Source of the DNA: Clostridia bacterium
GTDB taxonomy: Bacteria > Bacillota > Clostridia > DSM-8532 > SZUA-474
NCBI GenBank assembly: GCA_003251775.1
Contig: QKEK01000156.1
Location: 24,855-88,854, forward strand
DNA: 64,000 nucleotides
Reading direction: 5' to 3'
The notes under the pieces are model-generated. The model worked only from the letters and a program-made list of their open reading frames with translations, had not been told where the DNA came from and did no database searches. This document shows positions 21,052 to 51,029 of the stretch, piece by piece; the first letter of the stretch is position 1; every line of letters begins with the position of its first letter. Made by a program: the position numbers and the translations under genes.

Positions 21052-21074
21052 TTATCTTAAAATATTATTAAGAG

Positions 21075-21101
21075 GAGCCAACAATCTGTTGGCTCTGTTT
21101 T
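21075..21101 (+). terminator. Intra-operon hairpin/attenuator after the binding-protein gene
   Basis: A 9-bp perfect stem GAGCCAACA/TGTTGGCTC with loop ATC is followed by TGTTTT. The position is typical for elevating binding-protein mRNA over permease mRNA. Confidence 0.45.
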
Positions 21102-21116
21102 AAAGGAGTAAGGTGC

Positions 21117-30702: not shown

Positions 30703-31674
30703 CTAGAGCTTTTTTTTGATCATGGTTCTTGACTGAACAATAACAACAGCTAAAAGGATAACTCCTGTTGCAATGTTTTGCCACCATGTATTTAAATTTC
30801 CCTGGAGATTAAAAATTTGTCTCATAATACCAAGTATTAGAACACCAAAAAATGTTCCGCTTAGCTTCCCTCTACCACCTGTAATTAGGGTTCCACCAAT
30901 TACTGTTGCAGCAATTGCATACATCTCCCATCCGTCACCTGCTGTAAACTGCCCTGAACCTAGTCTTGAAGTCATTACAAGTCCAGACACTGAAGCTAAA
31001 AGTCCGCTAATCATGTATGTTGCCCATTTTACCTTGTTAACATTAATACCCATCATCCTTGCAGCTTCAATATTTCCACCGATAGCATAAATATGTCGTC
31101 CAAATCTAGTATATTTTAACAGAAGACCACCAATAATAAGAATTAAAAGAAACCATAAAAGGGCGTTAGGTATCATTGGAATAATTTCACCTTTAGCTAT
31201 TGCTTTAAAAGCTAAAGTTCTATCGGGAGTAGGTACAGATTTACTTCCCGTAGTTAAGTGAATATATCCTCTTATCCCGATCATGGATGCCAGAGTTGCA
31301 ATAAATGGTACAATTTTTAATTTTACTACCATAAATGCATTTAAGGAACCAAGAGCCAATCCGGTTAGGAGGGTTAGGGCTACAACTATAACAATATTGT
31401 AACTACTCATCCTTGCTGCAACAATACCACTAATAGCCAGAATTGAACCTACTGAAAGATCAATACCACCGGCAATAATAACTATTGTCATACCAAAAGC
31501 GATAAAACCAACCATTGTGTTTTGAACAAGCAGGTTTGTCACAAAGAGTCGTGATAAGAATACATCATACTTTATAGAAGCAAATATAAATAATAATATA
31601 AATATCAGCAATGAACTGTGCTCTTTTAAAACGTATTGTAAGTTAAAATTTTTATGTTTTTTAATATCCATCAC
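30703..31674 (-). CDS. Sugar ABC transporter permease (RbsC/YjfF-like)
   Basis: The protein has about 10 TM segments and looks like the BPD_transp_2 type. It is the last gene of a binding protein-ATPase-permease-permease operon. Confidence 0.9.
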   Translation of the reverse strand: MMDIKKHKNFNLQYVLKEHSSLLIFILLFIFASIKYDVFLSRLFVTNLLVQNTMVGFIAFGMTIVIIAGGIDLSVGSILAISGIVAARMSSYNIVIVVALTLLTGLALGSLNAFMVVKLKIVPFIATLASMIGIRGYIHLTTGSKSVPTPDRTLAFKAIAKGEIIPMIPNALLWFLLILIIGGLLLKYTRFGRHIYAIGGNIEAARMMGINVNKVKWATYMISGLLASVSGLVMTSRLGSGQFTAGDGWEMYAIAATVIGGTLITGGRGKLSGTFFGVLILGIMRQIFNLQGNLNTWWQNIATGVILLAVVIVQSRTMIKKKL

Positions 31675-31679
31675 TACCC

Positions 31680-32645
31680 CTACCTTTTACTGTGTAAAAA
31701 TCTCTGAGCCCAGAGTGCCAATATAATAATTATAGCTTTTAATATAAGTGAATATTCAAAAGATATATTATTCATATTTACCATTGTTGTTATTACCTGA
31801 ATTATTAATGCACCAAAAACAGTACCAATAATATTAGGTTTTCCACCATTCATTGGTGTACCACCAATTGCTACTGCTGCTATTGCATCAAGTTCTATCA
31901 TACTTCCAAGAATATTTGCATCTGATGCGGATATCCTTGCTGTATCAATAACTCCTGCAATACTTGCAAGGAAAGCACAGGTCGCATATATACCGATTTT
32001 AACAACAAATGTATTTATACCAACTAATTCTGTAGCTTTATGGTTCTCTCCTACTGCCTGGATTTTCCTTCCAAAAACCATTCTTGAAGAGATAAAATAC
32101 ATAATTATTATTGCTACAAATGCAATTACAACCTGTATTGGTATTTCTCCAAAAATTCTGTGTCTCCCGATAAATACATATTCAGGACTGTCTAATCTCA
32201 GAATTTTTGAGTCATTAATTATCTGTGCAACTCCCCTTATTCCGATCATTAGAGAAAGAGTTACAATTATTGGTTGTATATTGAATTTTGCTATTATAGC
32301 CCCTGCTAAAACTCCAGATAATATACCTGTAATTATACCTATTGTAATGGATTGAACAGCTCCTATACCAACAAGTTTTGCTGATACCATGGACACTAAT
32401 GCCATTACAGACCCTACAGAGATATCAATTCCACCGGAAGCAATAACCCATGTCATTCCCAAAGCTACAAGCAGTGAGGATGTTACCTGTATTGCCAGGT
32501 TTCTTAAAGTATTAACACTTGCAAAATTAGGTGTAAAAATAACATTAACAATAACAATAAAAAATAGAACCATTAACGGTGAATAATCAATTAAACGATT
32601 AATAACAATGTCTCTATTTAGTCTTTCTTTAAGTGGTGCTACCAT
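31680..32645 (-). CDS. Sugar ABC transporter permease (RbsC/YtfT-like)
   Basis: It is a paralogous multi-TM permease and contains a GGIDISVGS block. Confidence 0.9.
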   Translation of the reverse strand: MVAPLKERLNRDIVINRLIDYSPLMVLFFIVIVNVIFTPNFASVNTLRNLAIQVTSSLLVALGMTWVIASGGIDISVGSVMALVSMVSAKLVGIGAVQSITIGIITGILSGVLAGAIIAKFNIQPIIVTLSLMIGIRGVAQIINDSKILRLDSPEYVFIGRHRIFGEIPIQVVIAFVAIIIMYFISSRMVFGRKIQAVGENHKATELVGINTFVVKIGIYATCAFLASIAGVIDTARISASDANILGSMIELDAIAAVAIGGTPMNGGKPNIIGTVFGALIIQVITTMVNMNNISFEYSLILKAIIIILALWAQRFLHSKR

Positions 32646-32660
32646 TTAAGCCTCCTAATT

Positions 32661-34175
32661 TTAGTTAATTACTGCTCCATGAGCAATTTTATCCATGATT
32701 GCGCTAACCGTTATGGCTTCATTCTTTAATCCACCTACTGTTTTACCATCTTTAATAACCTGAACCCTGTCACAAGACTGTACCAGCTCTTCAAGTTCTG
32801 ATGATACCATTAATACGCTTATTCCATCTTCAGCAAGTTGTTCTACAAGATCAAGAATCTCTTTTTTTGCACCAACATCAATTCCTCTAGTTGGTTCATC
32901 AAGAATAAGCAGTTCAGGATGGGCACAGAGCCATCTGGCAAGTAGAACCTTTTGCTGATTTCCTCCACTTAAACTTCTTATTGGCTGATTTGGATTGGAA
33001 ACTTTAATTTTTAGAGCTTTAATATATTTATCTACAATTTTATTTTGCTCTCTTCTAGAAAGGAGTCCAAACCTGGATATACTACCCATAATTGCCAGGG
33101 TTAGATTCTCTCTAACAGACATATAGGGAATAATTCCTTCAGATTTTCTGTCTTCAGAGCAGTAGGCAATTTTGTTTTTTATTGCTGCTCTAGTATTATG
33201 GATTTTAGTTTTTTCACCATTAACTTCAAAATGACCGGATGAAAGGTAGTCTGCTCCAAATATTAGCCTGATAAGTTCTGTTCTTCCTGAACCCAATAGA
33301 CCTGCAAGTCCAAGGATCTCTCCTTTTCTAACTTCAATATTTTGTCCGTTTACCTTAGGCTTTGCAACAAGGTCTATACCTTTTACTATTGCCTCATCCT
33401 TAATTTTAGAGTCATTGTAAGCTTTTCTATATGAAACAATACTTGAAGCATCCATTCCAATCATTTTTGAAACCATTTCAAGTCTTGTTATATTTTCTGT
33501 TTTAGATGTTGCAACTAGTTCACCATCTTTTAATATACTCATTTCATCACTCATTTCAAAAACTTCATCAAGTCTGTGAGTAATAAATATAACCGAGATT
33601 CCTCTTGCTTTTAAATCTCTGATTACCTGAAACAGAATCTGAACTTCAGAACTGTCCAGAGAAGAGGTTGGCTCATCCAGTACAACAAGTTTTGCATTAA
33701 TTGATATAGCTCTGGCAATTGAAACCATCTGCTGTATTGCTGTGCTTTTAGTAGAAAGGATATCGTTTACATTAACATCTATACCCATGGATTTTAAAAT
33801 CTCATCAGCCCGTCTTTCGGTCTCTTTCCAATCTATAAAGCTATTTTTTCTAATCTCTCTCCCAAGAAATATATTTTCACAAATACTTAGATCCGGTATT
33901 AGATCCAGTTCTTGATAAACGGTACTAACACCTTTGTGATTCGCTTCAGCCGGAGAGTTAATTACTATTGTCTCTCCATCCAGGATTACTTCTCCAGAGT
34001 CCATGGTTTCAACACCTGTTAATACTTTTATTAGTGTTGATTTCCCAGCTCCGTTTTCACCCATTAAAGCGTGTACTTTCCCTCTGGAAACTATCAACTC
34101 TACATTATTTAAAGCTTTAACTCCTGGATATTGCTTATTGATATTCTTCATGTGTAATAATACATCTCTATCCAA
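32661..34175 (-). CDS. Sugar ABC transporter ATP-binding protein, duplicated ATPase (RbsA/YtfR-like)
   Basis: There are two nucleotide-binding domains: Walker A GENGAGKST and GLLGSGRTE, signature LSGGNQQK, and Walker B LILDEPT. Confidence 0.95.
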   Translation of the reverse strand: MDRDVLLHMKNINKQYPGVKALNNVELIVSRGKVHALMGENGAGKSTLIKVLTGVETMDSGEVILDGETIVINSPAEANHKGVSTVYQELDLIPDLSICENIFLGREIRKNSFIDWKETERRADEILKSMGIDVNVNDILSTKSTAIQQMVSIARAISINAKLVVLDEPTSSLDSSEVQILFQVIRDLKARGISVIFITHRLDEVFEMSDEMSILKDGELVATSKTENITRLEMVSKMIGMDASSIVSYRKAYNDSKIKDEAIVKGIDLVAKPKVNGQNIEVRKGEILGLAGLLGSGRTELIRLIFGADYLSSGHFEVNGEKTKIHNTRAAIKNKIAYCSEDRKSEGIIPYMSVRENLTLAIMGSISRFGLLSRREQNKIVDKYIKALKIKVSNPNQPIRSLSGGNQQKVLLARWLCAHPELLILDEPTRGIDVGAKKEILDLVEQLAEDGISVLMVSSELEELVQSCDRVQVIKDGKTVGGLKNEAITVSAIMDKIAHGAVIN

Positions 34176-34278
34176 AACATGGTCTCCTTTTTATCTGTAT
34201 ACAAATATGCCGACCATAATCAGCCGGCACATTTTTACATAGTCTTTAATATTTTGCTCTTCAAATTACAGGGTATAA

Positions 34279-35265
34279 TTAGAATGCAAACTCATAGCTG
34301 TTAGCAGCATTTTTTATAGTAAAAATCTTGTCTGGAACAATTGTTTCTTTTTTAACAACTCCACCATCAAGAACTGTTTGAATTACATCAAATACTGTTG
34401 GTCCCTGCATTGGTGAACATTGAACACAAGCTTCCCACTCACCAGCAAGAATTGCATCTAAAGCTTCTTTTTGACCATCGATAGAAACGATTTTGATATC
34501 AACACCTGGAGTTAAACCAGCATCTTTAATTGCTTGAGTTACACCTAGTGCCATACCATCGTTGTGAGCGAATACATAGTCAATATTTTCAGCACCTTGT
34601 GATTCAATGATGTTAGCCATTGCATCTAAAGCTTCAGTCATATTGAAGTTACATGTTTGTTCAACAATAATTTTCATATTAGGGAACTGCTCTTTCATTA
34701 CTTTTCTGAATCCTGCAGCTCTACCATCAACTGATGAAGTTCCCTCGATTCCTCTAATTTCTACAACTCTTGCAGCCGGGTTATCAGCACCTACAACTTC
34801 AGCACATCTTTCACCTTCCCAAGCTTGGTCTGAGTATACTGTTGTTAAGTAAGGACCGTTAGTAGTTCTACCTGTTGTAATAACTGTAACACCCATCTCT
34901 TTTGCTGTTTCTAGAACTGACTCTAAACCAGTATTCTCCATAGGTGCAACTACAAGGAAATCTAAACCTTGAGCTAACATATCCTCAATGTTTGATACGT
35001 GTGTAGCCATATCATCGTTAGCATCAGTATAAACATACTTAACACCACGAATTTTAGCTTCTTTTTCCATACTTTCTGTTAATGCAACCATCCAAGGATT
35101 TGGGTTACCACTCTGTGCAAAACCAACTTTAAGTTCTTTCATAGTTTTTGGTTTAGCATCCATTTTTTTGTCAGATTCTTTTGACCCATTAGCAAATACA
35201 AAACTGGTTTGTAATGCAAACAACACAACTAACAATGATACAATTTTTTTCATTTGTCTCTCCAT
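34279..35265 (-). CDS. Periplasmic sugar-binding protein (type I PBP, RbsB/YtfQ-like)
   Basis: It has a signal peptide, is about 330 aa with type I PBP composition, and is the first gene of the ABC operon. Confidence 0.9.
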   Translation of the reverse strand: MERQMKKIVSLLVVLFALQTSFVFANGSKESDKKMDAKPKTMKELKVGFAQSGNPNPWMVALTESMEKEAKIRGVKYVYTDANDDMATHVSNIEDMLAQGLDFLVVAPMENTGLESVLETAKEMGVTVITTGRTTNGPYLTTVYSDQAWEGERCAEVVGADNPAARVVEIRGIEGTSSVDGRAAGFRKVMKEQFPNMKIIVEQTCNFNMTEALDAMANIIESQGAENIDYVFAHNDGMALGVTQAIKDAGLTPGVDIKIVSIDGQKEALDAILAGEWEACVQCSPMQGPTVFDVIQTVLDGGVVKKETIVPDKIFTIKNAANSYEFAF

Positions 35266-35402
35266 TTTTTTTAATATCGTACTTTAAGTGTAACTCACAT
35301 CTGGCAGTTGTAAATGAAATAGATTTTGAATATTGTTCATTATTATTTGATATTTATTTATTTATTATAATTTTTTTTGAAATATAAAATATTTTTTGAA
35401 AA

Positions 35403-36374
35403 CTAGAATGCTTCATCAATATATTTATAAGCATTTTCCTTGGTGAATATTCTGTCATTATTAATGTATAGTTCTTCAATCTTTTCGTTGTTTATATGCT
35501 TGTTTATAATATCAAAAACTTTTGGTCCAAAATAGGGTGTACATCCAATTGATGCCAGAAGATCATCTGCAATAATTGCTTTTAGTGCATCTTTCTCCCC
35601 ATCTATAGATATAACTGTTACATCTACACCAGGTTCAATACCAGCTGCTTTAAGGGCAATTATAGCTCCTATAGCCATTTCATCATTGTGGGCAAAAACT
35701 GCAGAAATGTTCTCTTTATGCTCTCTTATAATATTTTCCATAGCCTTTTTTCCTGCAGATCTGTAAAAATCTGCGCTTATTGAGGCGATAATATTCATTT
35801 TAGGGTACTGATTTATTATTTGTTTAAATCCTAAAGTTCTTTCTGCTGCACTGGATGATCCCGGGGTTCCTGTTAACTCGATAATATTTGCTGTCCCATT
35901 TGTTGCTTCTGCAAGTATTTTTCCTGCCTGCTCTGCTTCCCATATATTATCTGAGATTATAAGTGTCAGGTAGTCAACTCCCGGTCGCCCCTGGGTTGCT
36001 CTATCAATTAATATTACCTTGCAGTTCTTGTTTCTGGCCATTATAAGGGCTTTTCTAAAGTCGTAATATGTTTTTGGTGCAAGAATAAGATAGTCCAGGT
36101 TCTGTTCAAGTAAATACTCTATATCTTTTAATTGCTGCTCTATTGAACCTTTTGCATCTCTATAAAAGAGTTCAACCCCAAGATTTTCAGCTTCAGAAAT
36201 AATACTGTTGGTTTCTGTAACCCTCCATGGACCATTGTTCTCCATCTGGGAAAAGCCAACTCTTACATCGGATATTTTCTCAACTATTCGCCTGTTTTCA
36301 CTGTTTTTATTGTTAGGAGTACAACCTGTTATAAGAAACAGTATTACCAGAAAAAAATAAATTTTATTTATCAT
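35403..36374 (-). CDS. Second type I periplasmic sugar-binding lipoprotein, probable sensor partner of the adjacent YesMN-like system
   Basis: The lipobox is LFLITGC and the fold is RbsB-like. It is monocistronic and divergent from the histidine kinase gene. The ATG at 36374 is preferred over the TTG at 36392. Confidence 0.75.
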   Translation of the reverse strand: MINKIYFFLVILFLITGCTPNNKNSENRRIVEKISDVRVGFSQMENNGPWRVTETNSIISEAENLGVELFYRDAKGSIEQQLKDIEYLLEQNLDYLILAPKTYYDFRKALIMARNKNCKVILIDRATQGRPGVDYLTLIISDNIWEAEQAGKILAEATNGTANIIELTGTPGSSSAAERTLGFKQIINQYPKMNIIASISADFYRSAGKKAMENIIREHKENISAVFAHNDEMAIGAIIALKAAGIEPGVDVTVISIDGEKDALKAIIADDLLASIGCTPYFGPKVFDIINKHINNEKIEELYINNDRIFTKENAYKYIDEAF

Positions 36375-36539
36375 GTCGAATTTTTTCTCCAATTATGGAT
36401 ATTTTTATATTATTATATACCTATTACGGAATCATGAAACATCATTTTTTTGCAAATACATAATATATGTGCTATATTGTCATGTAAGAATATTGGAGGG
36501 TTGGTGCTTAAGCAGAACATACAAGATTTTTTTGGAAAA

Positions 36540-38312
36540 ATGAATCTTCAGAAAAGGCTTTTTATATATTTTATAATAGTCTGTATAGTTCCTCTAATTA
36601 CAATTGGGAGTATATCTATTTTCCTATCTATAAATTCTACAAGGGATTCAGCTATTGAATTTAGTGATTCCACCCTATTACAGGTAAAAACGAGAATTGA
36701 GGCAATTATGGATGTTGCATTTACTCTTAGCCAGCAATTAAGTGACGATTTAACAGTTCAATCAGTTCTAAGAAAACCTCTGGAAAAAAATGTATCACTA
36801 AGATATCAGACTGATCTGGCAATGGATACCTACCTTAATTATGAGCTTAACTATATAAAAGAGATTTATGGATTCTATATAATTGGCGAGAATAAGGGAA
36901 AGTATAAAAGTGCCTATAACTCTTTTTTTCAGAATGATTTAACAACTACACTATGGTATCAGACTATTATGTCTACACAAAAGCCGGTTTGGTTTTCCAA
37001 GCATAAAAATTCACAGGCAGTAAAAACCTCTGGTCAGCACTTTATATCCAGTGGTATGAGAATTGAAGATAAGGCCAGTAATAACGACCTTGGTGTTATT
37101 CTGGTGGATATTGATCTTTATGAAATTGAGAAGGTTTTAATAGATTCCTTTGGGGATCTTGGCCAAGTACTGCTTATTGATGAGAAAAACAGAATTATAG
37201 CAAATTCTGAAAATCTCTTTGCTCCTGATTCTCAAATTGTTAACAGCGCAATAACAAAACTCTCCGAGAACCCTGAAATTGTTAATTTAAAGAGTTCAAT
37301 TAAAAATAATCTGGTATTAAGCAAAAAGCTGGATCATGCAGACTGGAGACTTTTGGCTATAATACCCTCATCACTTCTTTTAAAAGATAGTATTATTTCT
37401 GTAACAATTCTTGTTGTTTTATTATTAATAATAAGTTCTTTTACCTTTATTATTTCCAAAATTATTACTTCCACAATAACTATTCCTATTAATAATATGA
37501 TTTCCTTAATGAAAGAGGTAGAGTCTGGAAATCTGAACGTAAAAACCGAGGTTAATTATGATGATGAAATCGGCCGTTTAAGTGATAGTTTTAATACAAT
37601 GACTAATAAAGTAAAGACTCTAATGGATAAAAATGTTGAGGAGCAGGTAAAGTTGCGAAAGTCAGAGTTAAAAGCCCTGCAGTCCCAGATTAATCCCCAT
37701 TTCTTGTATAATACCCTTGATTCTGTTGTATGGCTTGCAAGGATGAAACAACATGAAGATATAATAAAAATTATTAGTGCAATAACCAGGCTGTTCAGAA
37801 TTAGTTTAAGCAGAGGAAATGATATAATATCTATTGATGAGGAGATATCTCATGTTACAAACTATCTTCTTATTCAAAAGTTCAGGTATAGAACACAGTT
37901 TAATTACTCCATTGATATTCCGGAATCTATTACAAACTATAAAACTCTAAAACTAATAATACAGCCTCTTGTGGAGAATGCTATCTATCATGGTATTAAA
38001 TTAAAAAGAGAGGGTGGGACGATATCTATAGTAGGTTTTGAACTGGAGCATGATATTATTATAAAGGTTATTGATACAGGGGCAGGTATGACAGTTGACA
38101 GATTGAACGCCATACATGAATATCTAGAATCGGGAGAGAGCAATAATATTACAATGTATGGTATTAAAAACGTAAATGAAAGGATAGAGATATTTTTTGG
38201 TAAATCCTATGGACTTCGTTTTACCAGCGAAGTAGGAAAAGGAACAACCGCAATAATAAGAATTCCAAAATATTCAGGAGATAATACAAGTGCTAAAAAC
38301 AGTTATAATTGA
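36540..38312 (+). CDS. Sensor histidine kinase, YesM/LytS-type (two TM, extracellular Cache-like domain, HAMP, His_kinase, HATPase_c)
   Basis: LKALQSQINPHFLYNTLDSV is the PF06580-type H-box. A HAMP domain and the ATPase blocks ENAIYHG and DTGAGM are also present. The start is uncertain: the track gives 36450, a GTG lies at 36504, and an ATG at 36540. Confidence 0.8.
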   Translation: MNLQKRLFIYFIIVCIVPLITIGSISIFLSINSTRDSAIEFSDSTLLQVKTRIEAIMDVAFTLSQQLSDDLTVQSVLRKPLEKNVSLRYQTDLAMDTYLNYELNYIKEIYGFYIIGENKGKYKSAYNSFFQNDLTTTLWYQTIMSTQKPVWFSKHKNSQAVKTSGQHFISSGMRIEDKASNNDLGVILVDIDLYEIEKVLIDSFGDLGQVLLIDEKNRIIANSENLFAPDSQIVNSAITKLSENPEIVNLKSSIKNNLVLSKKLDHADWRLLAIIPSSLLLKDSIISVTILVVLLLIISSFTFIISKIITSTITIPINNMISLMKEVESGNLNVKTEVNYDDEIGRLSDSFNTMTNKVKTLMDKNVEEQVKLRKSELKALQSQINPHFLYNTLDSVVWLARMKQHEDIIKIISAITRLFRISLSRGNDIISIDEEISHVTNYLLIQKFRYRTQFNYSIDIPESITNYKTLKLIIQPLVENAIYHGIKLKREGGTISIVGFELEHDIIIKVIDTGAGMTVDRLNAIHEYLESGESNNITMYGIKNVNERIEIFFGKSYGLRFTSEVGKGTTAIIRIPKYSGDNTSAKNSYN

Positions 38313-39915
38313 TGATGAAGATTTAATTAGAGAGGGGCTTGTTGCATCTATTAATTGGAATGATCTTGGGTTTGAAATTGCCGGTCAGGCATCAGATGGT
38401 GAGAGAGCTATTGAACTTATACAGAATTTAAGGCCGGATATTATAGTTACAGATATAAGAATGCCTTTTATGAATGGTCTGGAGTTAATAGAATTTATTA
38501 AACCCATGGTGCCTGAATCCTATATAATAATTATTAGTGGGCATGATGAGTTTCAGTATGCCCAGAAGGCTTTACAGCTAGGAGTTTACGATTTTATTTT
38601 AAAACCCTTTGAGCTGGACTATTTTGTAAAGGTTTTAACTAAAATTAAATATGATTACACAATTAAAAAGAGCAGTAATCGATCTGTCCTTCCAAAAGAG
38701 GATGTGGAGTCTCTTAAAATAGGTTTTTTAAAATCAATATGTCTTAATAAGATTGACGACGATCAGATTATTAACAGATTGAGAATTTATGATCTTCAGT
38801 ATTTGGAAGAGAGACTCTTTGCTACAATTATTGTCCAAATTGATAACTATCATATCTCTATTTCGGATAATACTTTTGATGAAATTAATGATGTACATAA
38901 GGTTTATCATCAATTAATAGAGAGTGTTGTAAAAGGTGAGGAGAAGATTCATCTTATTGAAGGAAATTCCGGGGATATAATACTCCTTCTTAACAGTACT
39001 AATGAGCTGGATTTATATAATAAGATTAGTAATTTAACAACCCAGTTAAGATGCGTCTTTGATAATGAGTCCAACCTGTCAGTTACAATAGCCTATAGTC
39101 AGATAGTGAATTCAATTTATAATATACATAAATCGTATAAGCAGTCATATAAAGCCTGTAACCAGCGTTTTGTAATTGGTTATAATCACAATATCTCCTA
39201 TGATATAACCGAGTCTCATCAGAATAATCATATAGCAAAATCTAATGTTCCTCAAATTAAATTTGATAGAAAGGCTTTTTCAGACGTCATAAAAGAGGGG
39301 GATAATTGTAAAATTTCTGAATATATAGATTCTATATTTAGTGAGATGTCAAATAAAGGGGGCGGTTCTGCACTTTTTGGAACAATGTTTGTTACCTCAG
39401 TTTATATAGAGCTGTTAAATATATTGGAAAATCAGGATCTTACAATTGGAGATCTATATGATGATCCAATTGCAATATACAAGCATCTTTCAATTTCAAA
39501 AAATATTGATGACTCAAGGGAGTTAATTACAGAAATTGCCGAAAAGGTCGCCCACCATCTAAGTTTAACAGGTTCTGAGCAGTATGACATGAGAATAAAA
39601 GAGGCTATAAATTATATAGAAAAGAATTTTGCAAACCCCAATATAACTCTGCAGGAGGTTGCAGAACATATTAATATGGGGGTTTGTTACTTTAGCAGCA
39701 CATTTAAAAAGGAGACCGGAGACTCATTTATTAACTATTTGAATAATACCAGAATAGAAAAAGCCAAGGATCTGTTTGAAAAAACATCATATAAAGCCTA
39801 TGAAATCTCTTACATGGTTGGATATAAAACACCAACCTACTTTAGCTCTCTATTTAAAAAGATACTCGGTATATCTCCAACGGAGTATAAAACTCAAAAG
39901 CTGATTGCAGATTAA
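38290..39915 (+). CDS. Response regulator with AraC-type DNA-binding output (YesN-like)
   Basis: The REC domain reads VIIDDE...DIIVTDIRMPFMNG...K. The C-terminal double HTH_AraC is present. The GTG start overlaps the kinase gene by 23 nt. Confidence 0.9.
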   Translation: MLKTVIIDDEDLIREGLVASINWNDLGFEIAGQASDGERAIELIQNLRPDIIVTDIRMPFMNGLELIEFIKPMVPESYIIIISGHDEFQYAQKALQLGVYDFILKPFELDYFVKVLTKIKYDYTIKKSSNRSVLPKEDVESLKIGFLKSICLNKIDDDQIINRLRIYDLQYLEERLFATIIVQIDNYHISISDNTFDEINDVHKVYHQLIESVVKGEEKIHLIEGNSGDIILLLNSTNELDLYNKISNLTTQLRCVFDNESNLSVTIAYSQIVNSIYNIHKSYKQSYKACNQRFVIGYNHNISYDITESHQNNHIAKSNVPQIKFDRKAFSDVIKEGDNCKISEYIDSIFSEMSNKGGGSALFGTMFVTSVYIELLNILENQDLTIGDLYDDPIAIYKHLSISKNIDDSRELITEIAEKVAHHLSLTGSEQYDMRIKEAINYIEKNFANPNITLQEVAEHINMGVCYFSSTFKKETGDSFINYLNNTRIEKAKDLFEKTSYKAYEISYMVGYKTPTYFSSLFKKILGISPTEYKTQKLIAD

Positions 39916-40328
39916 TTTTTAGGAGTTAATGCTGAAATTCCTAATCGTGCCAATTCTTCATCTTCCTGTCCGCTCATCCCGCTAACAGCTACAGCTCCTA
40001 TTACCTCATTATTAACAATAATTGGCACACCTCCCTGGAGGCCTGTATATCTTATATCTCCTAAATCTGTAATATTGAATTGGTTAATTTTAGAATTCTC
40101 TCCCAGTTCTCCGCTGGTCTGTTTATCTCTTGCTGCAGTAAATGCCTTGTTTATAGAGATATTAATTGATGAGAGAGGACTTTTGTCTGTTCTGAAAAAA
40201 GATAATAACTCTCCATGACTATCTACAACAGAAACCGAAACTCCTTTATCAAGAGGGATTATATACTCTTTTATCTTGTTATTAATTAACTCAACATCCT
40301 TTAGTGTTAACTTGTAAATTGTATCCAT
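39912..40328 (-). CDS. GlcG/HbpS-like heme-binding protein (DUF336)
   Basis: The GGVPIIVNNEVIGAVAVSG block is typical of DUF336. The protein is 138 aa. Confidence 0.75.
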   Translation of the reverse strand: MDTIYKLTLKDVELINNKIKEYIIPLDKGVSVSVVDSHGELLSFFRTDKSPLSSINISINKAFTAARDKQTSGELGENSKINQFNITDLGDIRYTGLQGGVPIIVNNEVIGAVAVSGMSGQEDEELARLGISALTPKN

Positions 40329-40437: not shown

Positions 40438-42672
40438 ATGATTAGGAATAAATTTTACAAACAACTTTATAAACTGGAAAAAGATGTACTTAATATTATA
40501 AATGAAGATGGAAGTAGTGACCTAACAAAGCGATTTACATCAATTCGTAAATACTCCGGTATTGCAAAGGGCATAAATATCTTTATGTCAATAATGGATA
40601 ACCTTATATATAAATTAAAAAGTGCAGCCAGAGATAGTGGTGAGAATCTTTCTGTTTTAAATAGTAAGTCCAAAGAAGTAAGTAATGCATCCGATGTAAT
40701 AGCCAAGGAGTTGCAGGAGATAGAGAAGAGGATGGAAGTTCTCTCTAATGCAATTGAAGAAGTTAAAAACAAGAGTCAGAATGTTACTGATTCGTCTCTC
40801 AATATCTCAAGTGAAATTGAGAAGCAGTCTGTAGCATTGGAAGAGTCTTCTGCTGCTATTACCCAGATGACTGCCTCTATAAGAAGTATAACAAATACTA
40901 CTTCTGACAGATTTTCAATAATTGGAGAACTAAAGAATGTTGCCAATACAAGTAGTAATAAAATTCAGAAAAATGAGGACATTATTGGTCAAATAGCAAA
41001 TAAAGCCGATCAGATTCAAGCATTTATTGCAATTATTGATAATGTTGCTGCTCAGACCAATTTGCTAGCAATGAATGCTGCAATAGAGGCTGCCCACGCA
41101 GGGGAAGCTGGTAGAGGTTTTAGTGTTGTTGCTGATGAAATCAGAAAACTTGCTGAGAGTACCGGGGTAAATGCAAAAAATATTGGTTCTACAATGAATG
41201 AGATTCTTTCGGGAATACATCAGGCTCAGACACTTTCAAGGGATGTTACAGATTCATATAAGTCTATTTTAAATGGTGTTGATCAGTTTGCTGACAGTAT
41301 TACTGAGGTTTCAGCAGGTTTAACCCAGCTCTCGTCCGGTACCGGTGAGATCGATAAAGCCCTAGCTGAATTATCCTCTGTAACAAGTGATGTTAAAGAG
41401 TCTTCAGTAAGTATTATAAATGACTCTGAAGAAATTTTAAACTCAATGGATAAAGTAAGTCTTTTAACAGAAGAGAATACAAAATTTATTGGGAAAATAG
41501 GTGACCAGGTTGATCTTTCTAACTCAATTATTTCTGAATTTGACACTATTTGTAGCAGCAGCTATACAGACATAAACTCACTTTTAAAACAGGTAGACAG
41601 ATATAAGATAACAGATTTGGGTTCACTAAGAAGTGGGGATGATCAGCAGTTAATTATGTGGAATTCTGTACAGAAAGTAATTCCTCCACGGCCTGCAAAC
41701 CCAGACTCCTTTCCAAAATCTGACTCGAGACACTGGCATGATACAGAATATGCAGGATATGGGGTTAAGAAAGCTGAATTACCAAAATCACCATGTGATG
41801 GTCCAAATGGTAAAAAAGTTGCAGTATTCATCCCAGGGGATCACCCTTATTATAAAGCCTATCAGTTAGGAATGGGCAAAATTGCCAAGTTAATGGGTGT
41901 AAATCTGGAATTTACAGTAGGTGACTGGACTGGGGGGCCACAGGTTAAGTTTTTTGATAAAATTATGAATTCAAAACAGGACATGGTTATTATTATTCCA
42001 GCTGAAAGAAAGAATTTTGAGTCTCAGATTATTGCAGCCTATAATAAAAATATCCCAATTATTGTATCCCAGGAAGCACCATCCCAGGAAGCATTTAAAT
42101 ACATTATTAGTTATACAGGTTTTGATGATTGGGGTAGCCATAGATTCTTTGGTAGACATTTTGCTGATACTTTAAACAAACAGGGTGGATATGCCATAGT
42201 AGAACATTTGGAAGGAACAGGACAGAATACAGCCAGATGTTATGGTTTCTCTACTGAGATTACAACCTATGCCCCTGAAATGAAATTATTGGATATGAAG
42301 GGTACTGAACTTGATGAAGAGAAAACCCTTGTATTAGTAAGATCCTGGTTAAAGAAATATGGAGATCAACTAAAAGGGATTTACTCTGCAGATAGTTTGT
42401 ATCCTGTTAAAGGGATTGTTAGAGCTATTGAAGAGAGTGGAAGAAAGGATATTATTGTTTATACAACAGGTGTTAATAAATTCTCACTGGACATGACAAA
42501 GGCAGGTAAGTGTCATGGAATCAGGTGGGAATCTGCAGAAGCTGATGGAGCATTGGCTGTTGAAACTGCATGTAACTGGTTTAGTGGACTATTTGTTGAG
42601 CCTATTAAATTTCTGCCATACAGTTGCGTTACAATTAAAAATGCAGATGATTACTACCCTGCACAATGGTAG
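40438..42672 (+). CDS. Soluble methyl-accepting chemotaxis protein with a C-terminal type I periplasmic-binding-protein-like (sugar-binding) domain
   Basis: The MCP hairpin tip reads [40 protein letters not shown] found no hydrophobic TM segment. From about residue 455 (nt about 41809) the sequence looks like a PBP1 fold ([14 protein letters not shown]...IPIIVS...). Confidence 0.8.
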
Positions 42673-42695
42673 AATTTCTGTAGTTGTACAAATTG

Positions 42696-42725
42696 ATCCT
42701 GAAGTTAATACTTCAGGATTTTTTT
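42696..42725 (+). terminator. Rho-independent terminator after the MCP-PBP gene
   Basis: A 9-bp stem ATCCTGAAG/CTTCAGGAT with loop TTAATA is followed by T6. Confidence 0.7.
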
Positions 42726-43570
42726 CATTTTTCATTTTTAAATTTTACCGGGGATATTCCCGTTGTCTTTTTAAATTGGGTTGAAAATTCATATTGAGAC
42801 TTATATCCAAGAAGATCTGATACCTCGCCAATTGACTTATCGGAGGTTTTTAATAGTTGGCAGGCCATGTCTATTCTTCGTCTTACAATATACTGTCCCG
42901 GGGAGATTCCCAGGCTCTCTTTAAATCTTTTTCTGAATGACTCGTAACCAAGTCCTTTATCATTACAATATTCCTGTAGATTAATTCTTTTTTTTAAATC
43001 TTTAGTAAAGTCAGTACAGCACTTATCAATAATTTTCTGAGGGATATCGAACTTAATATTTGCAATTGACTGGTTAAGAATCTCCCTTAAAAAAGAGATA
43101 TTTGCAATAAGAAGTTCCGGTATTTCTGACTCCGGGCAATTTTCAAGGTTTTTCATCTTGTGAAATATTGACTCTTCAATAACTCTATCCGGTGTATAAT
43201 TAAATACAGGAATGTTTTTATTTATTATTCTCATATTAACTAAAAAGTTGAAAATTTCTGTACCAAAATCCATATAACATTCTGACCAGTTACTATCGGG
43301 ATCCAGAATTGTTGAATGTATTGCCCCTGGAAAACGCTGATAAATTGTTCCGGGAGAAAGGTTATACTCATTCCCATCACTATCAATATACTTTCCCTGA
43401 CCTCTAATTACGTATACTACTGAATAGTAGAAGAATTTAGTATCTTTTACATCAATTCTCTGACCAAATTTGTGGAGGAATCCAAAACCTATCTGTGCCC
43501 CTGTATTATTTATACCAACAGACCTTACTACTTTACATGATTCTATGTTATCAATACCCGGATAATTCAT
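42725..43570 (-). CDS. AraC-family transcriptional regulator (cupin plus HTH_AraC), divergent from lacZ
   Basis: The C-terminal HTH_AraC reads LQEYCNDKGLGYESFRKRFK...IGEVSDLLGYKSQYEFSTQFK. Confidence 0.85.
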   Translation of the reverse strand: MNYPGIDNIESCKVVRSVGINNTGAQIGFGFLHKFGQRIDVKDTKFFYYSVVYVIRGQGKYIDSDGNEYNLSPGTIYQRFPGAIHSTILDPDSNWSECYMDFGTEIFNFLVNMRIINKNIPVFNYTPDRVIEESIFHKMKNLENCPESEIPELLIANISFLREILNQSIANIKFDIPQKIIDKCCTDFTKDLKKRINLQEYCNDKGLGYESFRKRFKESLGISPGQYIVRRRIDMACQLLKTSDKSIGEVSDLLGYKSQYEFSTQFKKTTGISPVKFKNEK

Positions 43571-43610: not shown

Positions 43611-46766
<3,156 letters not shown>

Positions 46767-46812
46767 TATACTTAATATGGCAGAGGGAAACTTCTGCCAT
46801 ATTGAGGTACTT

Positions 46813-47904
46813 ATGACAAAATCAATTAGAAATGCCTATATGATAGGCAAGTTTAACAGTAAAAAGTTTTATGATTGGTGGTGGCACTCATTTTGTGCAG
46901 TAAACAGAAAAACAGGTGAGCTGGAACCATTTTTTATTGAGTATTATGTAATAAATCCCGGTTTGGGAGGGGATAATCCTATCTTTGGGCAACTTCCCGG
47001 TAATAAAAAACCATCCTATGCAATGATAAAAGCCGGAAAATGGGGTGAAAACAGAGCCCAAATACATAATTTCTGGGGTATAAACTCATTTAAAGCATCA
47101 AAAAAAGAGATGAATGTTCAAATAGACTCTAATGTAGCCACAGAAAATGTTCTTAAGGGACGTGTTTCTGTTTTAAGAGAAGTCCCAGAAAACCACCCGG
47201 AGTATATGACTGATTGGGGTGAAATGAGTTGGGATTTAAAAGTTGAAAAGAGACTTAATTTCTCAGTAGGTTACGGTGCATCAAAAATTTTTAGAAGTAT
47301 GAATCTGTTTTCAATGTTTTGGCATGTTCAGGGAATGAAAGCAGAATATAGTGGGACTATTGTTTATAATAATCAACCTTATGATGTTATTCCACAAAGC
47401 TCCTATGGGTATCAGGATAAAAATTGGGGAAAAGATTATACAAATCCCTGGATATGGCTTAACTGCAATAATTTCAGGGATAAGGATGGCAAGAGTTTAA
47501 CAAACAGTTCTCTGGATATTGGGGGAGGCAACCCAAAAATTGGTCCAATAAGTTTAGGGGAGAAGATTCTGGTCTGCTTTTATTTGGAAGGCAGAAAGTT
47601 TGAATTTAATTTTACCCATCTTTTATTTCAGAAACAGAACTGGAAATGCTATGAGGATGAGAACAATATTTACTGGGATGTAGATGTAAGTAATTTAAAA
47701 CACAGATTAAAAGTAAATTTTTCCTGTAAAAAGGATGGGATGATTCTTGTAAACTACGAAAATCCTGAAGGTTTAAAAAATCATAAAAAACTCTGGAATG
47801 GAGGGTATGCACAAGGAACTCTGGAACTTTATGAAAAAAAGAGTAATATATTGCTTTGCTCCTTAACCGGAGAAAATGGTGGTTGTGAATATGGAAGATA
47901 TTAA
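46813..47904 (+). CDS. Tocopherol-cyclase-like family protein (function unknown here)
   Basis: YGYQDKNWGKDYTNPWIWLNCNNF...GGG...VCFYLEGRKFEF resembles the plant/cyanobacterial tocopherol cyclase block [23 protein letters not shown]...GGG...VHYDGKMYEF, recalled from memory. The ATG at 46813 has a GAGG RBS, and the upstream ATG at 46777 lies inside a hairpin. Confidence 0.45.
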   Translation: MTKSIRNAYMIGKFNSKKFYDWWWHSFCAVNRKTGELEPFFIEYYVINPGLGGDNPIFGQLPGNKKPSYAMIKAGKWGENRAQIHNFWGINSFKASKKEMNVQIDSNVATENVLKGRVSVLREVPENHPEYMTDWGEMSWDLKVEKRLNFSVGYGASKIFRSMNLFSMFWHVQGMKAEYSGTIVYNNQPYDVIPQSSYGYQDKNWGKDYTNPWIWLNCNNFRDKDGKSLTNSSLDIGGGNPKIGPISLGEKILVCFYLEGRKFEFNFTHLLFQKQNWKCYEDENNIYWDVDVSNLKHRLKVNFSCKKDGMILVNYENPEGLKNHKKLWNGGYAQGTLELYEKKSNILLCSLTGENGGCEYGRY

Positions 47905-49134: not shown

Positions 49135-49162
49135 TAATGTCTTACAATTAAACTGTGCATAG

Positions 49163-49193
49163 AAAGCTCTATTTATTAATAGAGCTTTTTTTT
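49163..49193 (+). terminator. Rho-independent terminator after the small OMP gene
   Basis: A 9-bp stem AAAGCTCTA/TAGAGCTTT with an 8-nt loop is followed by a T-run to 49193. It lies inside the listed 5' extension of the next ORF, which argues for the ATG at 49230. Confidence 0.7.
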
Positions 49194-49229
49194 CATCAAA
49201 ATATTTTATTTCATAAAAAGGATTTTATT

Positions 49230-51029
49230 ATGAGTAACAGTTTAAAAAGGAAGAAATTTTTCTCAATTCGATCTGTCTATATCTCAATTTATGGACTTTT
49301 TGCTGTGTTGTGCGTGTTTATAGCACTGGCCCTTGTTGGTAATATAAAAAAAAGTGATGACAGTATATCCAGATTTATGACTAGATCACAAAAAGCAGAC
49401 AGTATTTTACTGGATATAACTTTTGCCACCGGTTATGGAGGTTTAATTCATAACTTTAAAAATTATATTATTAGTAAAGATGTACAGTATTTTGATAAAG
49501 TAGATGCACAGTACAAAAAATTTCAGGAATTAACTCAAGAGCTGAAAAATTTCCTGGATTTGACAGAGGAAGAGAAGACAAGTATTAAAATCCTTGAAGA
49601 TACAATGGGAGAGTACAGATCTAAGGCCAATGTTTTAAAGAAATCCTTTTCTGAACCTGATATTGATATAGAAACTATTAATAAAATTTCAATAGTTGAT
49701 GATACAGCAGCAATAAAGGCAATAAAAGATTTAAAGAGATCATTTGGGGATGAAGCAGCAACCCAGGGAATCTTTGTCCAACAGCAGAGTAGTCTACTGG
49801 TAAAAATTGCTATAGGAACAATAGTTGCAATATTAGTTTTGTCAGGCTCCCTTCTTTTTGTTATATATAGGATGATGTCTGATCAACTAACATATTTTGC
49901 TGCAGTTACAAAAGAGATGGCTAGAGGGGATCTCTCAAAAAGAGTAGATATAAATCTAAAGGATGTTATAGGAGATCTTTCCAGAAATTTCGACTCTTCT
50001 ATTGAGTCATTTTCCAGAATGATTGGGAAAGTTCAAACTTCCGCAACTGATAATGGTGAAATAAATAGCCAACTACTGGAAACTGTAGAGAAGAGCCTGG
50101 ATGAAAGTAGCCAGATATTAAAGAGTGCAAAGAATAGCAACCAGCAATTTTATTCTCTAATGGATAAGATAAATACCAGCTCATCGACAATTGAGGAGAT
50201 ACAGGCTCTTGTTAATAACTTTTCTAACAGGTCTATCGATCAGGTTAGCGCAGTAGATCAGACTTCATCATCTGTAGAGGAGATGATAGCTTCAATAAAA
50301 AATGTTGCTAAAATTTCTGATGCAAAACTGGCTATAACAAAGGATCTGGTTAGAGTTACCCTGGAAGGAAACAGCCTGATAAGTGATACAAATGATGTAA
50401 CCCACCAGATTAGTAGCAGTGCCACAGGTATGCTTGAAATTTCCGATGTTATTAATAATATTGCATCCCAGACAAATTTACTGGCAATGAATGCTGCTAT
50501 TGAGGCAGCCCATGCAGGTGATGCCGGAAAGGGTTTTGCTGTAGTTGCTGATGAGATAAGAAAATTGGCAGAATCTACAGGTTCAAATGCCACATATATT
50601 TCTGAAAATCTGAAGAGGTTAATGATTGATGTAGAACAGGCACTTGAGTCCAGTAATAAAAGTGGAGAGGCTTTTTCGGAAATAGAGAAACATGTAAAAG
50701 ATGTTGCCCACTCCTTTGAAGAAATTCAGATGAGTATGAGTGAATTATCCCAGGGAAGTATGGAGATTCTAAATAGTACAGAGTCTTTAAAAAATATCTC
50801 CAGTGAGATTGAGATTGGAAGTCAGGAGATGAATATTGGAATTAAAAATATTAATGATTCATTACTTGAAATTAAAGAGTACGGCTATAAATCCAAGAGT
50901 ATTATGGAAGAGATTGAGGAGAGATCTGAAGCTATAAATAGTCTGGTATCCAATGTCTCAGGTCTTACTGATACCTCAAACAAAAAATTGAAACTTCTTT
51001 TAGATGAAGTTGAACTATTTAAAGTATAA
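49230..51029 (+). CDS. Transmembrane methyl-accepting chemotaxis protein (4HB-like sensor, HAMP, MCP signal)
   Basis: Two TM segments flank a helical periplasmic region. A HAMP domain follows. The hairpin tip reads [39 protein letters not shown]. Confidence 0.9.

Follow-up and report, generated by a model that had tools for sequence, protein, structure and literature searches.

A soluble chemoreceptor with a C-terminal sugar-binding-protein module, a putative cytoplasmic sensor for uptake-dependent sugar chemoreception

Introduction

Sugar chemotaxis via periplasmic binding proteins (PBPs) that dock on membrane receptors is textbook knowledge, and sensing of sugars after their uptake is known mainly for PTS-linked taxis, there only at an indirect level. 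Inside the cell, the type I PBP fold serves as a sugar sensor in repressors of the LacI/GalR family. Azospirillum brasilense Tlp1 is reportedly a chemoreceptor (MCP) whose PilZ domain, at the C-terminus, binds c-di-GMP. Binding-protein-mediated sugar taxis in E. coli involves Trg together with RbsB or MglB, and Tar together with MalE (PMC8050422). A precedent for sensors placed at the C-terminus of an MCP is TlpD with its CZB domain (bioRxiv 10.64898/2026.01.16.699579).

Here we describe an MCP–PBP fusion encoded by a spirochaete-type gene in a 64,000-nucleotide stretch of DNA (the window). The combination of MCPsignal with a C-terminal Peripla_BP domain was not described in the literature searched, although the review of cytoplasmic chemoreceptors by Collins et al. 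2014, outside that literature, may mention it, and MCPs with a C-terminal CZB or PilZ sensor domain are the closest precedents. Like the fusion protein, Helicobacter pylori TlpD and Salmonella McpA are cytoplasmic and devoid of transmembrane (TM) segments, and their sensor follows the C-terminal helix of the hairpin, opposite the kinase-control tip (bioRxiv 10.64898/2026.01.16.699579). However, the sensor of TlpD and McpA is a four-helix CZB bundle placed astride the coiled coil and responds to Zn2+ or oxidants, whereas that of the fusion is a type I PBP with two lobes and about 357 aa whose ligand is probably a sugar. [quoted passage not shown] Tlp1, as far as reported, also carries a cytoplasmic small-molecule sensor C-terminal to the MCP signalling domain; by contrast, it is membrane-bound, possesses an extra periplasmic sensor, and its PilZ domain is a small β-barrel that reads a second messenger and is not a nutrient-binding protein.

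As in the case of E. coli Trg, the primary sugar sensor would be an RbsB-like type I PBP from a family that also serves an ABC importer (PMC8050422). Yet the E. coli PBP is a free periplasmic protein which binds, without covalent attachment, to the periplasmic domain of a TM receptor and signals the presence of sugar outside the cell, whereas the PBP of the fusion is covalently attached at the C-terminus and predicted to be cytoplasmic. The output of LacI/GalR-type repressors and of AraC-fused paralogues of the module is DNA binding, while that of the MCP fusion would be control of CheA; the module stands N-terminal to the output domain in the AraC fusions and C-terminal to it in the MCPs. The premise of an earlier note on this DNA, namely that sensors normally precede the MCP module and that PBPs normally act outside the cell, ignored regulators of the LacI/GalR type in its second part. 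The XylFII-LytS-YesN system of Clostridium beijerinckii (PDB 5xss, 5xsj) resembles the fusion in employing a Peripla_BP_4 protein for signalling and not for transport; unlike the fusion module, a XylFII-type PBP is an exported lipoprotein acting outside a TM histidine kinase. A three-component sugar-sensing system of this type is encoded immediately upstream in the window (35403-39915), and its PBP belongs to another subfamily; tblastn at E ≤ 1e-3 matched it nowhere to the module.

Results

The gene and its product

The fusion gene and its parts are as follows:

40438..42672, + strand: soluble MCP–PBP fusion gene; complete ORF, stop codon included, with a product of 744 aa
40389..40417, + strand: sigma-70-like promoter candidate TGGACA-17-TATAAT, 21 nt upstream of the start codon, with 11 of 12 consensus positions matched; a consensus match only, in a region with a total of 13 promoter-like sites against 10.0 expected from shuffles
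40438..40602, + strand: HAMP-like remnant, residues 1-55, with a helix (2-18), a connector that contains a DLTKR motif, and the beginning of the long helix
40603..41598, + strand: methyl-accepting signalling hairpin, residues 56-387, supported by Pfam MCPsignal, AF2 and alignment to a second MCP
41074..41121, + strand: canonical hairpin-tip motif of 16 residues, 213-228; expected CheA/CheW-contact region with columns invariant in 28 homologues
41599..41808, + strand: N-terminal extension of the PBP module, residues 388-457, supported by conservation across forms and by AF2
41809..42669, + strand: type I RbsB-like PBP core, residues 458-744, supported by Pfam Peripla_BP_4, Foldseek and hhalign
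42695..42720, + strand: intrinsic-terminator-like hairpin, 23 nt after the stop codon, with a T-run behind its 11-bp stem; a consensus match only

The ATG start codon is preceded by a GGAAGG ribosome-binding site, and an N-terminal extension of the ORF is impossible because an in-frame stop codon is located 21 nt upstream. The gene has a promoter-like and a terminator-like site of its own and lies between genes on the opposite strand, the next one downstream being that at 42725-43570.

Signalling part and topology

The MCPsignal domain (PF00015) was detected by Pfam at residues 167-323 (E 6.7e-31; 107.9 bits versus a cut-off of 34.6). It is part of a hairpin that turns at residue 221 and whose two antiparallel helices each have about 165 residues (about 24 heptads). 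In the AF2 full-length model, which is a monomer whereas MCPs work as dimers, the helices span residues 37-220 and 222-386 and form one continuous hairpin, directly followed by the module, and no segment falls below a pLDDT of 50. The canonical hairpin tip recognized in the earlier note was confirmed and begins at residue 213. Residues 1-55 align to the HAMP region (GEGDLTxR...) of TM-bearing homologues and contain no TM segment; Pfam did not detect HAMP in the fusion protein itself. The strict methylation consensus [ASTG][ASTG]xx[EQ][EQ]xx[ASTG][ASTG] found no match in the fusion protein. Two relaxed matches of 10 residues each are present at positions 138 and 292, and in homologues P0001, P0008 and P0014 the aligned position fits the strict consensus. 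A Pfam scan that covered 27 ORFs of the window detected no che genes; about 20 further ORFs of at least 180 aa lay outside that scan. The gene of homologue P0007 is adjoined by cheX.

The highest Kyte-Doolittle hydropathy over 19 residues is 1.23 in the fusion protein as compared with 2.7 in the TM helices of the neighbouring histidine kinase. Based on this difference the protein is predicted to have neither a TM segment nor a signal peptide, and in this respect it fits the cytoplasmic (soluble, topology class IV) chemoreceptors. TM-bearing relatives possess two N-terminal TM helices and a HAMP domain, and no family member has a TM segment between MCP and PBP. Because TM helices occur only N-terminal to HAMP, the PBP domain must be cytoplasmic. 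Thus, domain order and hydropathy bear out the TM-less architecture with a PBP C-terminal to the signalling domain that had been read from the sequence, and the topology of the relatives supports the cytoplasmic location then assigned to the ligand-binding domain.

The fusion protein ends in ...DYYPAQW, and the PBP core has a family-wide ...YYPAQW end. We considered this terminus as a pentapeptide that tethers CheR/CheB (xWxxF, NWETF-like) and rejected the idea: a YPxQW end is common to exported and permease-fused SBPs and is therefore a structural feature of the module, not a tether.

The C-terminal module

Peripla_BP_4 (PF13407) was detected at residues 467-713 (E 1.9e-24; 87.1 bits versus a cut-off of 35.1). 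The AF2 model of the module has a mean pLDDT of 95, and Foldseek aligned it to 2ioy with a TM-score of 0.87 (E 9e-21), with more than 700 PDB matches at E ≤ 0.001; comparison with E. coli RbsB by hhalign yielded a probability of 98.8. The earlier assignment to type I PBPs was thus confirmed at the level of the model, in which the C-terminal part is predicted to fold as a ribose-binding-protein-like, two-lobed α/β protein. By contrast, the supposed Pro/Ser-rich linker (about residues 388-457) is no spacer of low complexity but a conserved extension of the PBP module, modelled with confidence (pLDDT 87-97 in the module-only model). It is characterized by the motifs D..L.S.D.Q.LI, IPPRPxxP, HW.D.EYAG and SP.DG..GK, and is kept in the MCP-fused, exported, permease-fused and AraC-fused forms. 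Since alignments to solved RBP-like structures cover no more than about 275-300 of the 357 module residues and the profile alignment to RbsB begins at module residue 71, the extension appears to be without counterpart in those structures.

For the ligand pocket we relied on the RbsB contact residues which we take to be those given in the literature on 2DRI, transferred by a profile alignment at 18% identity to RbsB. They correspond to module positions H82, Y84, N158, R213, D265, G291 and Q311, which are conserved in all three classes (R213 in 74/74 module sequences), and the candidate pocket residues of the fusion protein itself are H469, Y471, Q545, R600, D652, G678 and E698. Accordingly, the H, Y, R, D and G positions are unchanged in the window protein, whereas its MCP subclade has the replacements N158Q, Q311E and P175F (Q545, E698 and F562 of the full-length protein), which are absent from exported or AraC-fused members. 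As no exported member has the exchanges leading to Q545 and E698, the ligand of this subclade may be a modified one. In the other MCP-fused groups the N158/Q311 pocket seen in exported SBPs is retained (13/18), and the classes are told apart by only two alignment columns. Judged by these alignments, the RbsB-contact positions appear to be as strongly conserved in the MCP fusions as in the SBPs of transporters. Averaged over 27 homologues, identity amounts to 48% for the N-terminal extension, 43% for the PBP core and 38% for the MA bundle; the module thus appears to be under purifying selection and as conserved as the signalling core.

A family with fixed register

Databases contain about 31 full-length homologues of the fusion protein (33-65% identity), and 21 further MCP fusions were found among genome loci. 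The closest match among the GTDB representatives scanned stems from a Spirochaetia MAG (58% identity). About 50 homologues from Spirochaetota-type bins have the same architecture and an invariant register: the distance from the tip to PxRP is 203 residues in 48 of 49 sequences, and that from DLTxR to the tip is 187 residues in all but one of 32. A second, TM-anchored MCP is encoded in the window at 49155-51029. The hairpin of the fusion aligns with it end to end, and this second receptor ends exactly where the module starts in the fusion. The module begins at a fixed helical position at which an ordinary receptor of this bundle length ends, level with the HAMP-like element, and TM-anchored family members carry it at the same register as the soluble ones.

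The module (about 357 aa) belongs to one small and distinctive PBP subfamily, with only 74 of 1.84 billion 50%-identity cluster representatives matching at E ≤ 1e-30. Relatives cover about 100% of residues 388-744, the former "linker" included, and bear signal peptides or lipoboxes, AraC helix-turn-helix domains or a permease. In 80 genome loci the module is MCP-fused (21), AraC-fused (6), exported (9) or preceded by a large N-terminal extension (44) that is a CUT2 permease in the full-length examples read. Permease-fused forms require an extra TM helix to place the module outside, which the MCP fusions lack. An export signal (signal peptide, lipobox or TM tether) is present in paralogues P0127, P0130-P0139 and L057 3391-4590; it is absent from the window domain, which is therefore an SBP homologue and not itself a transporter SBP. 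Members of the subfamily primarily serve CUT2-type ABC sugar importers as their SBP, exported or permease-tethered. In spirochaetes the module has been taken into the cytoplasm, without signal peptide, in two ways: N-terminal to AraC-type DNA-binding domains, as in paralogues P0124, P0125 and L074 513-2291 of the same subfamily, and C-terminal to MCPs.

Gene neighbourhoods

In loci L057 and L011 the genes for an ABC ATPase, a permease, an exported SBP (module) and an MCP-module fusion follow each other in this order on one strand, and in L074 and L002 an AraC-fused paralogue adjoins a transporter that carries an exported paralogue. That transporter and MCP fusion adjoin each other could be a relic of tandem duplication and need not speak for a functional link. 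MCP-fused loci are mostly located away from the transporter (URO-D in 2/24, a second module copy in 5), and the genes of the window's MCP subclade are not linked to transporter or URO-D loci. The consistent partners at transporter loci are URO-D-like genes, sometimes joined by genes for L-fucose isomerase, class II aldolase or rhamnose mutarotase; this gene content points to a monosaccharide-like substrate that would be processed by URO-D-like enzymes. L-fucose was not retained as candidate ligand, FucI being found in only 3/53 extracytoplasmic and 2/7 AraC-fused loci, a weak hint. In PMC10418091, which treats clusters of MtaA homologues, neither a sugar context nor one of ABC transporters is mentioned.

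The window's own 64 kb does not encode an exported paralogue of the module. As sources of the module we dismissed the window PBPs at 34279-35265 and 35403-36392, which are members of another subfamily and remained without tblastn match at E ≤ 1e-3. The proposal that taxis is driven by an intracellular sugar metabolite was strengthened in its general form by the CUT2-SBP and AraC paralogues, the conserved pocket and the linkage to transporter operons. The AraC/lacZ neighbourhood on which it had drawn is not a useful clue: the four other soluble-clade loci examined have no AraC or GH2 neighbours, and the gene is flanked by opposite-strand genes and bounded by the promoter-like and terminator-like sites described above.

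Discussion

We propose that the fusion protein is a soluble cytoplasmic MCP whose complete, C-terminal SBP-type module is a putative sensor, and we consider a role in uptake-dependent sugar chemoreception to be the probable one. With a full copy of an ABC-transporter sugar-binding protein at the end of the receptor, the cell probably steers by sugar that is sensed after import. According to this model the cell would import a sugar or make a close derivative of it, and the module would bind that molecule in the cytoplasm. Venus-flytrap closure might then displace the final helix of the four-helix bundle with respect to the HAMP-like element, and this shift would alter control of the CheA kinase at the tip, about 165 residues away. 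The outcome would be uptake-dependent sugar taxis, with the soluble form probably joining arrays that are built by membrane receptors of equal length.

The molecule that is bound need not be the transported sugar. A cytoplasm-specific metabolite (a derivative formed by phosphorylation, isomerisation or demethylation, or else some unrelated small molecule) would make the receptor report metabolic flux instead of uptake. This reading has a smaller but appreciable chance of being correct, given that N158Q, Q311E and P175F of the window subclade occur in no exported or AraC-fused member and that the genes of this subclade are unlinked to transporter or URO-D loci. On the other hand, 13 of 18 members of other MCP-fused groups retain the N158/Q311 pocket, some MCP fusions reside inside a transporter operon, and the five remaining pocket positions are the same in the window protein. 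It seems rather improbable that the module senses nothing and is a structural element that organises or localises cytoplasmic arrays, caps the open end of the bundle instead of the membrane, or recruits partners. PMC13001251 reports that the soluble receptor TlpD needs its C-terminus for polar localisation; moreover, the window protein lacks both TM anchoring and a strict methylation consensus, and most MCP-fused genes are unlinked to a transporter. Yet the MCP-fused copies keep RbsB-contact positions as conserved as those of transporter SBPs, only two alignment columns separate the classes, the PBP core is more conserved than the bundle, and TM-anchored members, which need no substitute for the membrane, keep the same module at the same register.

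Two further explanations concern the topology and the reality of the protein. That the PBP domain reaches the outside by an unrecognised topology or secretion route, sensing external sugar like a normal SBP, is highly improbable even though its closest non-fused relatives are all exported or tethered to the membrane outside the cell. Contact with CheA and CheW requires an MCP signalling tip to lie in the cytoplasm. Neither a signal peptide nor any hydrophobic segment is present in the window protein, TM-bearing homologues have their only TM helices N-terminal to HAMP and none between MCP and module, and the extra TM helix of the permease-fused forms is missing from the MCP fusions. The earlier note had raised the concern that the ORF is an artefactual fusion of two genes, or one might think of a recent accidental fusion, for example through a sequencing error near 41650-41800. 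Frameshift errors sometimes create such proteins, but we found no evidence for one here and regard this explanation as ruled out for practical purposes: the reading frame is continuous through the junction, the identical 744-aa protein is present in an independent assembly, more than 50 homologues down to 33% identity have the same architecture with indel-free spacing across the junction, and the junction region is conserved and confidently modelled.

Returning to uptake-dependent sugar chemoreception by the C-terminal module, we tentatively suggest that this is the first recognised chemoreceptor family with an intracellular Venus-flytrap SBP module, and that one module may have been reused for uptake, transcription and taxis of one sugar. 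The SBP, the AraC fusion and the MCP fusion represent a trio of matched proteins for ligand identification and for biosensors, and the family flags a widespread, uncharacterised set of CUT2 transporter and URO-D-like genes. A fusion of this kind would also make it possible to study how a large two-lobed sensor drives a methyl-accepting bundle from its C-terminal end. If the model is true, the fixed register would imply a mechanical coupling of flytrap closure to the C-terminal helix of the bundle, and the MCP signalling core would thereby have a new route of input. A covalent, cytoplasmic binding-protein receptor would be a direct and genetically simple system for uptake-dependent taxis, and spirochaetes that possess it would navigate by the amount of substrate that they have actually imported.

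Architecture of the fusion protein

The 744-amino-acid fusion protein is encoded by a single uninterrupted open reading frame (40438..42672, plus strand) with GGAAGG ahead of its ATG; because of an in-frame stop codon 21 nt upstream, a longer N-terminus is impossible. According to Pfam, an MCPsignal domain (residues 167–323; E 6.7e-31) is followed by a Peripla_BP_4 domain (residues 467–713; E 1.9e-24), both far over the gathering score. Named MCP equivalogs of NCBIfam gave only sub-threshold matches. The maximal 19-residue hydropathy of 1.23, compared with 2.7 for the transmembrane (TM) helices of the neighbouring histidine kinase on the same scale, and the hydrophilic N-terminus leave no room for a TM segment or a signal peptide. 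Thus, the earlier note was correct in describing a TM-less methyl-accepting chemotaxis protein (MCP) with a C-terminal domain of the periplasmic-binding-protein (PBP) type.

Genes flanking the fusion gene
39912–40328, opposite strand to the fusion gene: GlcG/HbpS-like gene
42725–43570, opposite strand to the fusion gene: AraC regulator

Given these opposite-strand neighbours, and its own promoter-like site (11 of 12 matches) and terminator-like hairpin, the fusion gene is most likely monocistronic.

The concern that two open reading frames had been joined by an artefact, also raised in the earlier note, carries next to no weight. The identical protein with the same neighbours occurs in an independent public assembly (Logan SRR7216773), and about 31 full-length relatives with 65% down to 33% identity and the same order of MCPsignal and C-terminal Peripla_BP_4 were retrieved from 5.8 billion proteins; their source labels, where named, are Spirochaetes, Spirochaetales or Spirochaetaceae. 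Another 21 MCP fusions turned up when species-representative genomes were scanned. When 53 fusion proteins were compared, the spacing between the hairpin tip and a PxRP motif located within the supposed linker was 203 residues in 48 of 49 informative cases, and that between the HAMP-like DLTxR motif and the tip was 187 in 31 of 32. Such an unvarying junction register among sequences that share as little as one-third identity rules out a sequencing error. Annotation pipelines have already seen this architecture, as illustrated by database entries such as 'methyl-accepting chemotaxis protein/ABC-type sugar transport system substrate-binding protein'.

Position of the module in the receptor

The AF2 model of the full-length protein (mean pLDDT 84.5, with every segment at 50 or higher) is built up as follows.

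Residues 2–18: helix
Between residues 18 and 37: connector
Residues 37–220: single continuous helix
Residue 221: turn
Residues 222–386: helix, with the module directly after it

With arms of about 165 residues (about 24 heptads) each beyond the HAMP-like element, the protein belongs, judged by arm length, to a long receptor class. A second MCP encoded in the window (49155–51029), which has two hydrophobic segments, HAMP and MCPsignal, shares the same bundle length, and its C-terminus aligns to residue 391 of the fusion protein, the point of module start. The module has therefore been attached precisely where a receptor of this length would normally end. The module must adjoin the HAMP-like element, at the opposite end from the kinase-control tip.

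Outside the window clade, most family members have a Pfam-detectable HAMP as well as a pair of TM helices at the N-terminus, accompanied by a short loop or by a large periplasmic domain; the window clade (the window protein and its homologs P0001–P0003, P0005 and P0007) has a HAMP-like remnant only. No member of the family contains a TM helix between bundle and module. This places the module in the cytoplasm in all MCP-fused members, and the chance that it resides outside the cytoplasm appears negligible.

The binding-protein module and its family

With residues 388–744 as sole query, relatives were found that are 35–47% identical over approximately 100% of the query, Pro-rich stretch included. 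The AF2 model of the module reached a mean pLDDT of 95 (pTM 0.91), with values of 87–97 in the N-extension. Foldseek matched the module to ribose-, arabinose- and polyol-binding proteins over approximately 275–300 columns at 16–21% identity (2ioy, TM 0.87), and the profile alignment with RbsB starts at module residue 71, which suggests that solved structures lack an equivalent of the N-extension of about 70 residues. The earlier note had proposed a Pro/Ser-rich linker followed by an RbsB/LacI-type PBP. While Pfam, AF2 and Foldseek agree on the PBP fold, the 'linker' is conserved in relatives and well modelled, and is thus better regarded as an ordered, subfamily-specific part of the module.

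In its exported form (about 390 amino acids) a signal peptide or lipobox is directly followed by the motif block of the module (D.S.LKS.DGQPL..., IPPRPxxP, HWYD.EYAGW, SPADG..GK), and the protein ends, like the fusion protein, with ...YPxQW. The AraC form (P0124, P0125, P0144; about 560 amino acids) lacks a signal peptide and places the module before an AraC-type HTH. In P0128 the module lies downstream of an ABC permease within one protein. Among 80 genome loci, the module was MCP-fused in 21, AraC-fused in 6, exported in 9 and preceded by a hydrophobic N-terminal extension in 44. The last class (L015–L083) was assigned by N-terminal length and hydropathy; its extension reaches about 440 residues and, in the full-length examples read, consists of a BPD_transp_2-type (CUT2-type) permease plus one extra TM helix. 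This largest class probably comprises mostly permease-fused, membrane-tethered substrate-binding proteins (SBPs), exceptions being L046, an over-extended exported lipoprotein, and L026, a mis-started or truncated open reading frame. Permease, extra TM helix and SBP module form a single open reading frame of about 750 amino acids in L018 (Planctomycetota) and L048 (Lacunisphaera), and the class stems mostly from Planctomycetota, Verrucomicrobiota/Lentisphaerota and Hydrogenedentota bins.

MCP-fused and AraC-fused modules were found in Spirochaetota-type bins; transporter forms occur also in Planctomycetota, Verrucomicrobiota/Lentisphaerota, Hydrogenedentota, Calditrichota and Moorella. The family is a small one with clear limits: at E<=1e-30 the module matched only 74 of 1.84 billion 50%-identity representatives. 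By a crude motif-based classification, these include at least 15 MCP-fused proteins, at least seven AraC-type fusions and 32 fragments or unclassified sequences.

Conservation of the ligand pocket

E. coli RbsB, in a sequence confirmed to be identical to the 2DRI/1URP chain, aligned with the module profile at an hhalign probability of 98.8. Seven of the 11 residues which we take from the 2DRI literature to be its ribose contacts (N13, F15, F16, N64, D89, R90, R141, F164, N190, D215, Q235) map to strongly conserved module residues (H82, Y84, N158, R213, D265, G291, Q311; numbered from full-length residue 388). R213 is kept in all 74 sequences and H82 in 73, and only two alignment columns separate MCP-fused from extracytoplasmic copies. 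Mean identity to the window protein within the MCP family is 48% in the N-extension, 43% in the PBP core and 38% in the signalling bundle. This conservation has the pattern expected of a working ligand pocket rather than of a vestige; a module with a non-sensory structural role is accordingly improbable. The window subclade departs from all exported and AraC-fused members by the substitutions N158Q, Q311E (Q545 and E698 of the full-length protein) and P175F, which may reflect an altered ligand.

Genomic context

Near the fusion gene, the stretch 43632–47904 holds a GH2 β-galactosidase-like gene (1044 amino acids) and, 10 nt behind it in the same orientation, a tocopherol-cyclase-like open reading frame (PF14249, E 2e-14), an unusual partner of a glycosidase. 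The earlier note read the adjacency of AraC and lacZ as a sugar clue. This adjacency is not conserved, since the four other soluble-clade loci examined contain neither an AraC nor a GH2 gene and have unrelated neighbourhoods. Another sugar-related region lies upstream of the fusion gene.

30703–31674 and 31680–32645, minus strand: CUT2 ABC permeases
32661–34175, minus strand: CUT2 ABC ATPase
34279–35265, minus strand: CUT2 SBP
35403–36392: second lipoprotein PBP, adjoining the CUT2 operon and divergent from the histidine kinase and regulator genes
36450–38312: LytS-type histidine kinase
38290–39915: YesN-type RR-AraC regulator, whose gene shares 23 nt with the kinase gene

Together, the genes at 30703–39915 resemble a three-component sugar sensor of the XylFII/LytS/YesN type next to its own transporter. 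The window also encodes a 362-amino-acid ankyrin-repeat protein (60525–61613) and 7TMR-DISM-GGDEF, 7TMR-DISM-SpoIIE phosphatase and TPR-GAF-GGDEF proteins (5639–7366, 13404–15479 and 574–2640).

At three loci, L072 of Moorella mulderi (1136–11701), L074 of Oceanispirochaeta (7266–9682) and L002 of a Spirochaetales MAG (13130–14179 and 20834–21686), the exported module is part of a CUT2 ABC operon that also contains between one and three URO-D-like (PF01208) genes. L-fucose isomerase is also encoded at L072 and L002, a class II aldolase at L072 and rhaM at L002. URO-D-like genes were found near the module at 38 of 53 extracytoplasmic, all seven AraC-fused and two of 24 MCP-fused loci; we found no paper on this gene set. 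The pairing with transporter forms recurs in several phyla; the other companions (fucose isomerase, class II aldolase, rhaM) are only occasional. This context suggests that the ligand is monosaccharide-like and is processed by the URO-D-like enzymes, and it hints only weakly at a 6-deoxyhexose.

At L074 an AraC fusion immediately precedes the transporter that contains its exported paralog. At L057 and L011, genes for an ABC ATPase, a permease, an exported SBP (the module, with a clear signal peptide) and an MCP–module fusion follow each other on one strand, and at L023, L025 and L076 a second module copy is likewise located just upstream of the MCP fusion. The copy at L076 (315–1398) is broken across three reading frames, being a pseudogene or an assembly error. 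Judged from such loci, one ligand-binding module appears to serve uptake, transcription control and taxis, sometimes side by side. The only chemotaxis gene adjoining any family member examined is cheX, divergent from the soluble-clade homolog P0007 (L086 7365–7841).

Proposed mechanism

A C-terminal sensor on an MCP has precedents in the cytoplasmic CZB domains of TlpD and McpA, and DcrH reportedly carries a C-terminal hemerythrin. PBP-fold sugar sensors acting in the cytoplasm are already known from LacI/GalR. Tlp1, another MCP with a sensor in this position, has a C-terminal PilZ domain (PMC3604760), and RbsB-like PBPs are classical indirect periplasmic chemotaxis sensors (PMC8050422). Our literature search, whose scope did not extend to a key 2014 review of cytoplasmic chemoreceptors, yielded no description of an SBP module placed C-terminally on an MCP and acting inside the cell, nor of the paralogous trio of SBP, AraC fusion and MCP fusion.

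The evidence for the architecture is solid. The protein represents a cytoplasmic MCP whose C-terminal extension is a conserved, pocket-bearing paralog of ABC-importer SBPs at a fixed helical register. As to function, we infer that the substrate would be imported, via the cognate CUT2 transporter where present, and bound by the module in the cytoplasm. As the lobes close, the final helix of the bundle would shift against the HAMP-like element, and this shift would change bundle packing and CheA control at the tip. With respect to adaptation, the window protein contains no strict methylation consensus. Taxis driven by an intracellular sugar metabolite, as envisaged in the earlier note, loses the support of AraC and lacZ; cytoplasmic sensing nevertheless is a reasonably probable function in view of module paralogy, pocket and the other loci. 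A variant of this model in which the module binds a cytoplasm-specific derivative is considerably less probable, though slightly more probable than a purely structural role. Sensing of the imported substrate would amount to uptake-dependent chemotaxis. PTS-linked taxis in E. coli follows a similar logic, yet the sensor proposed here would be direct and covalently attached to the receptor.
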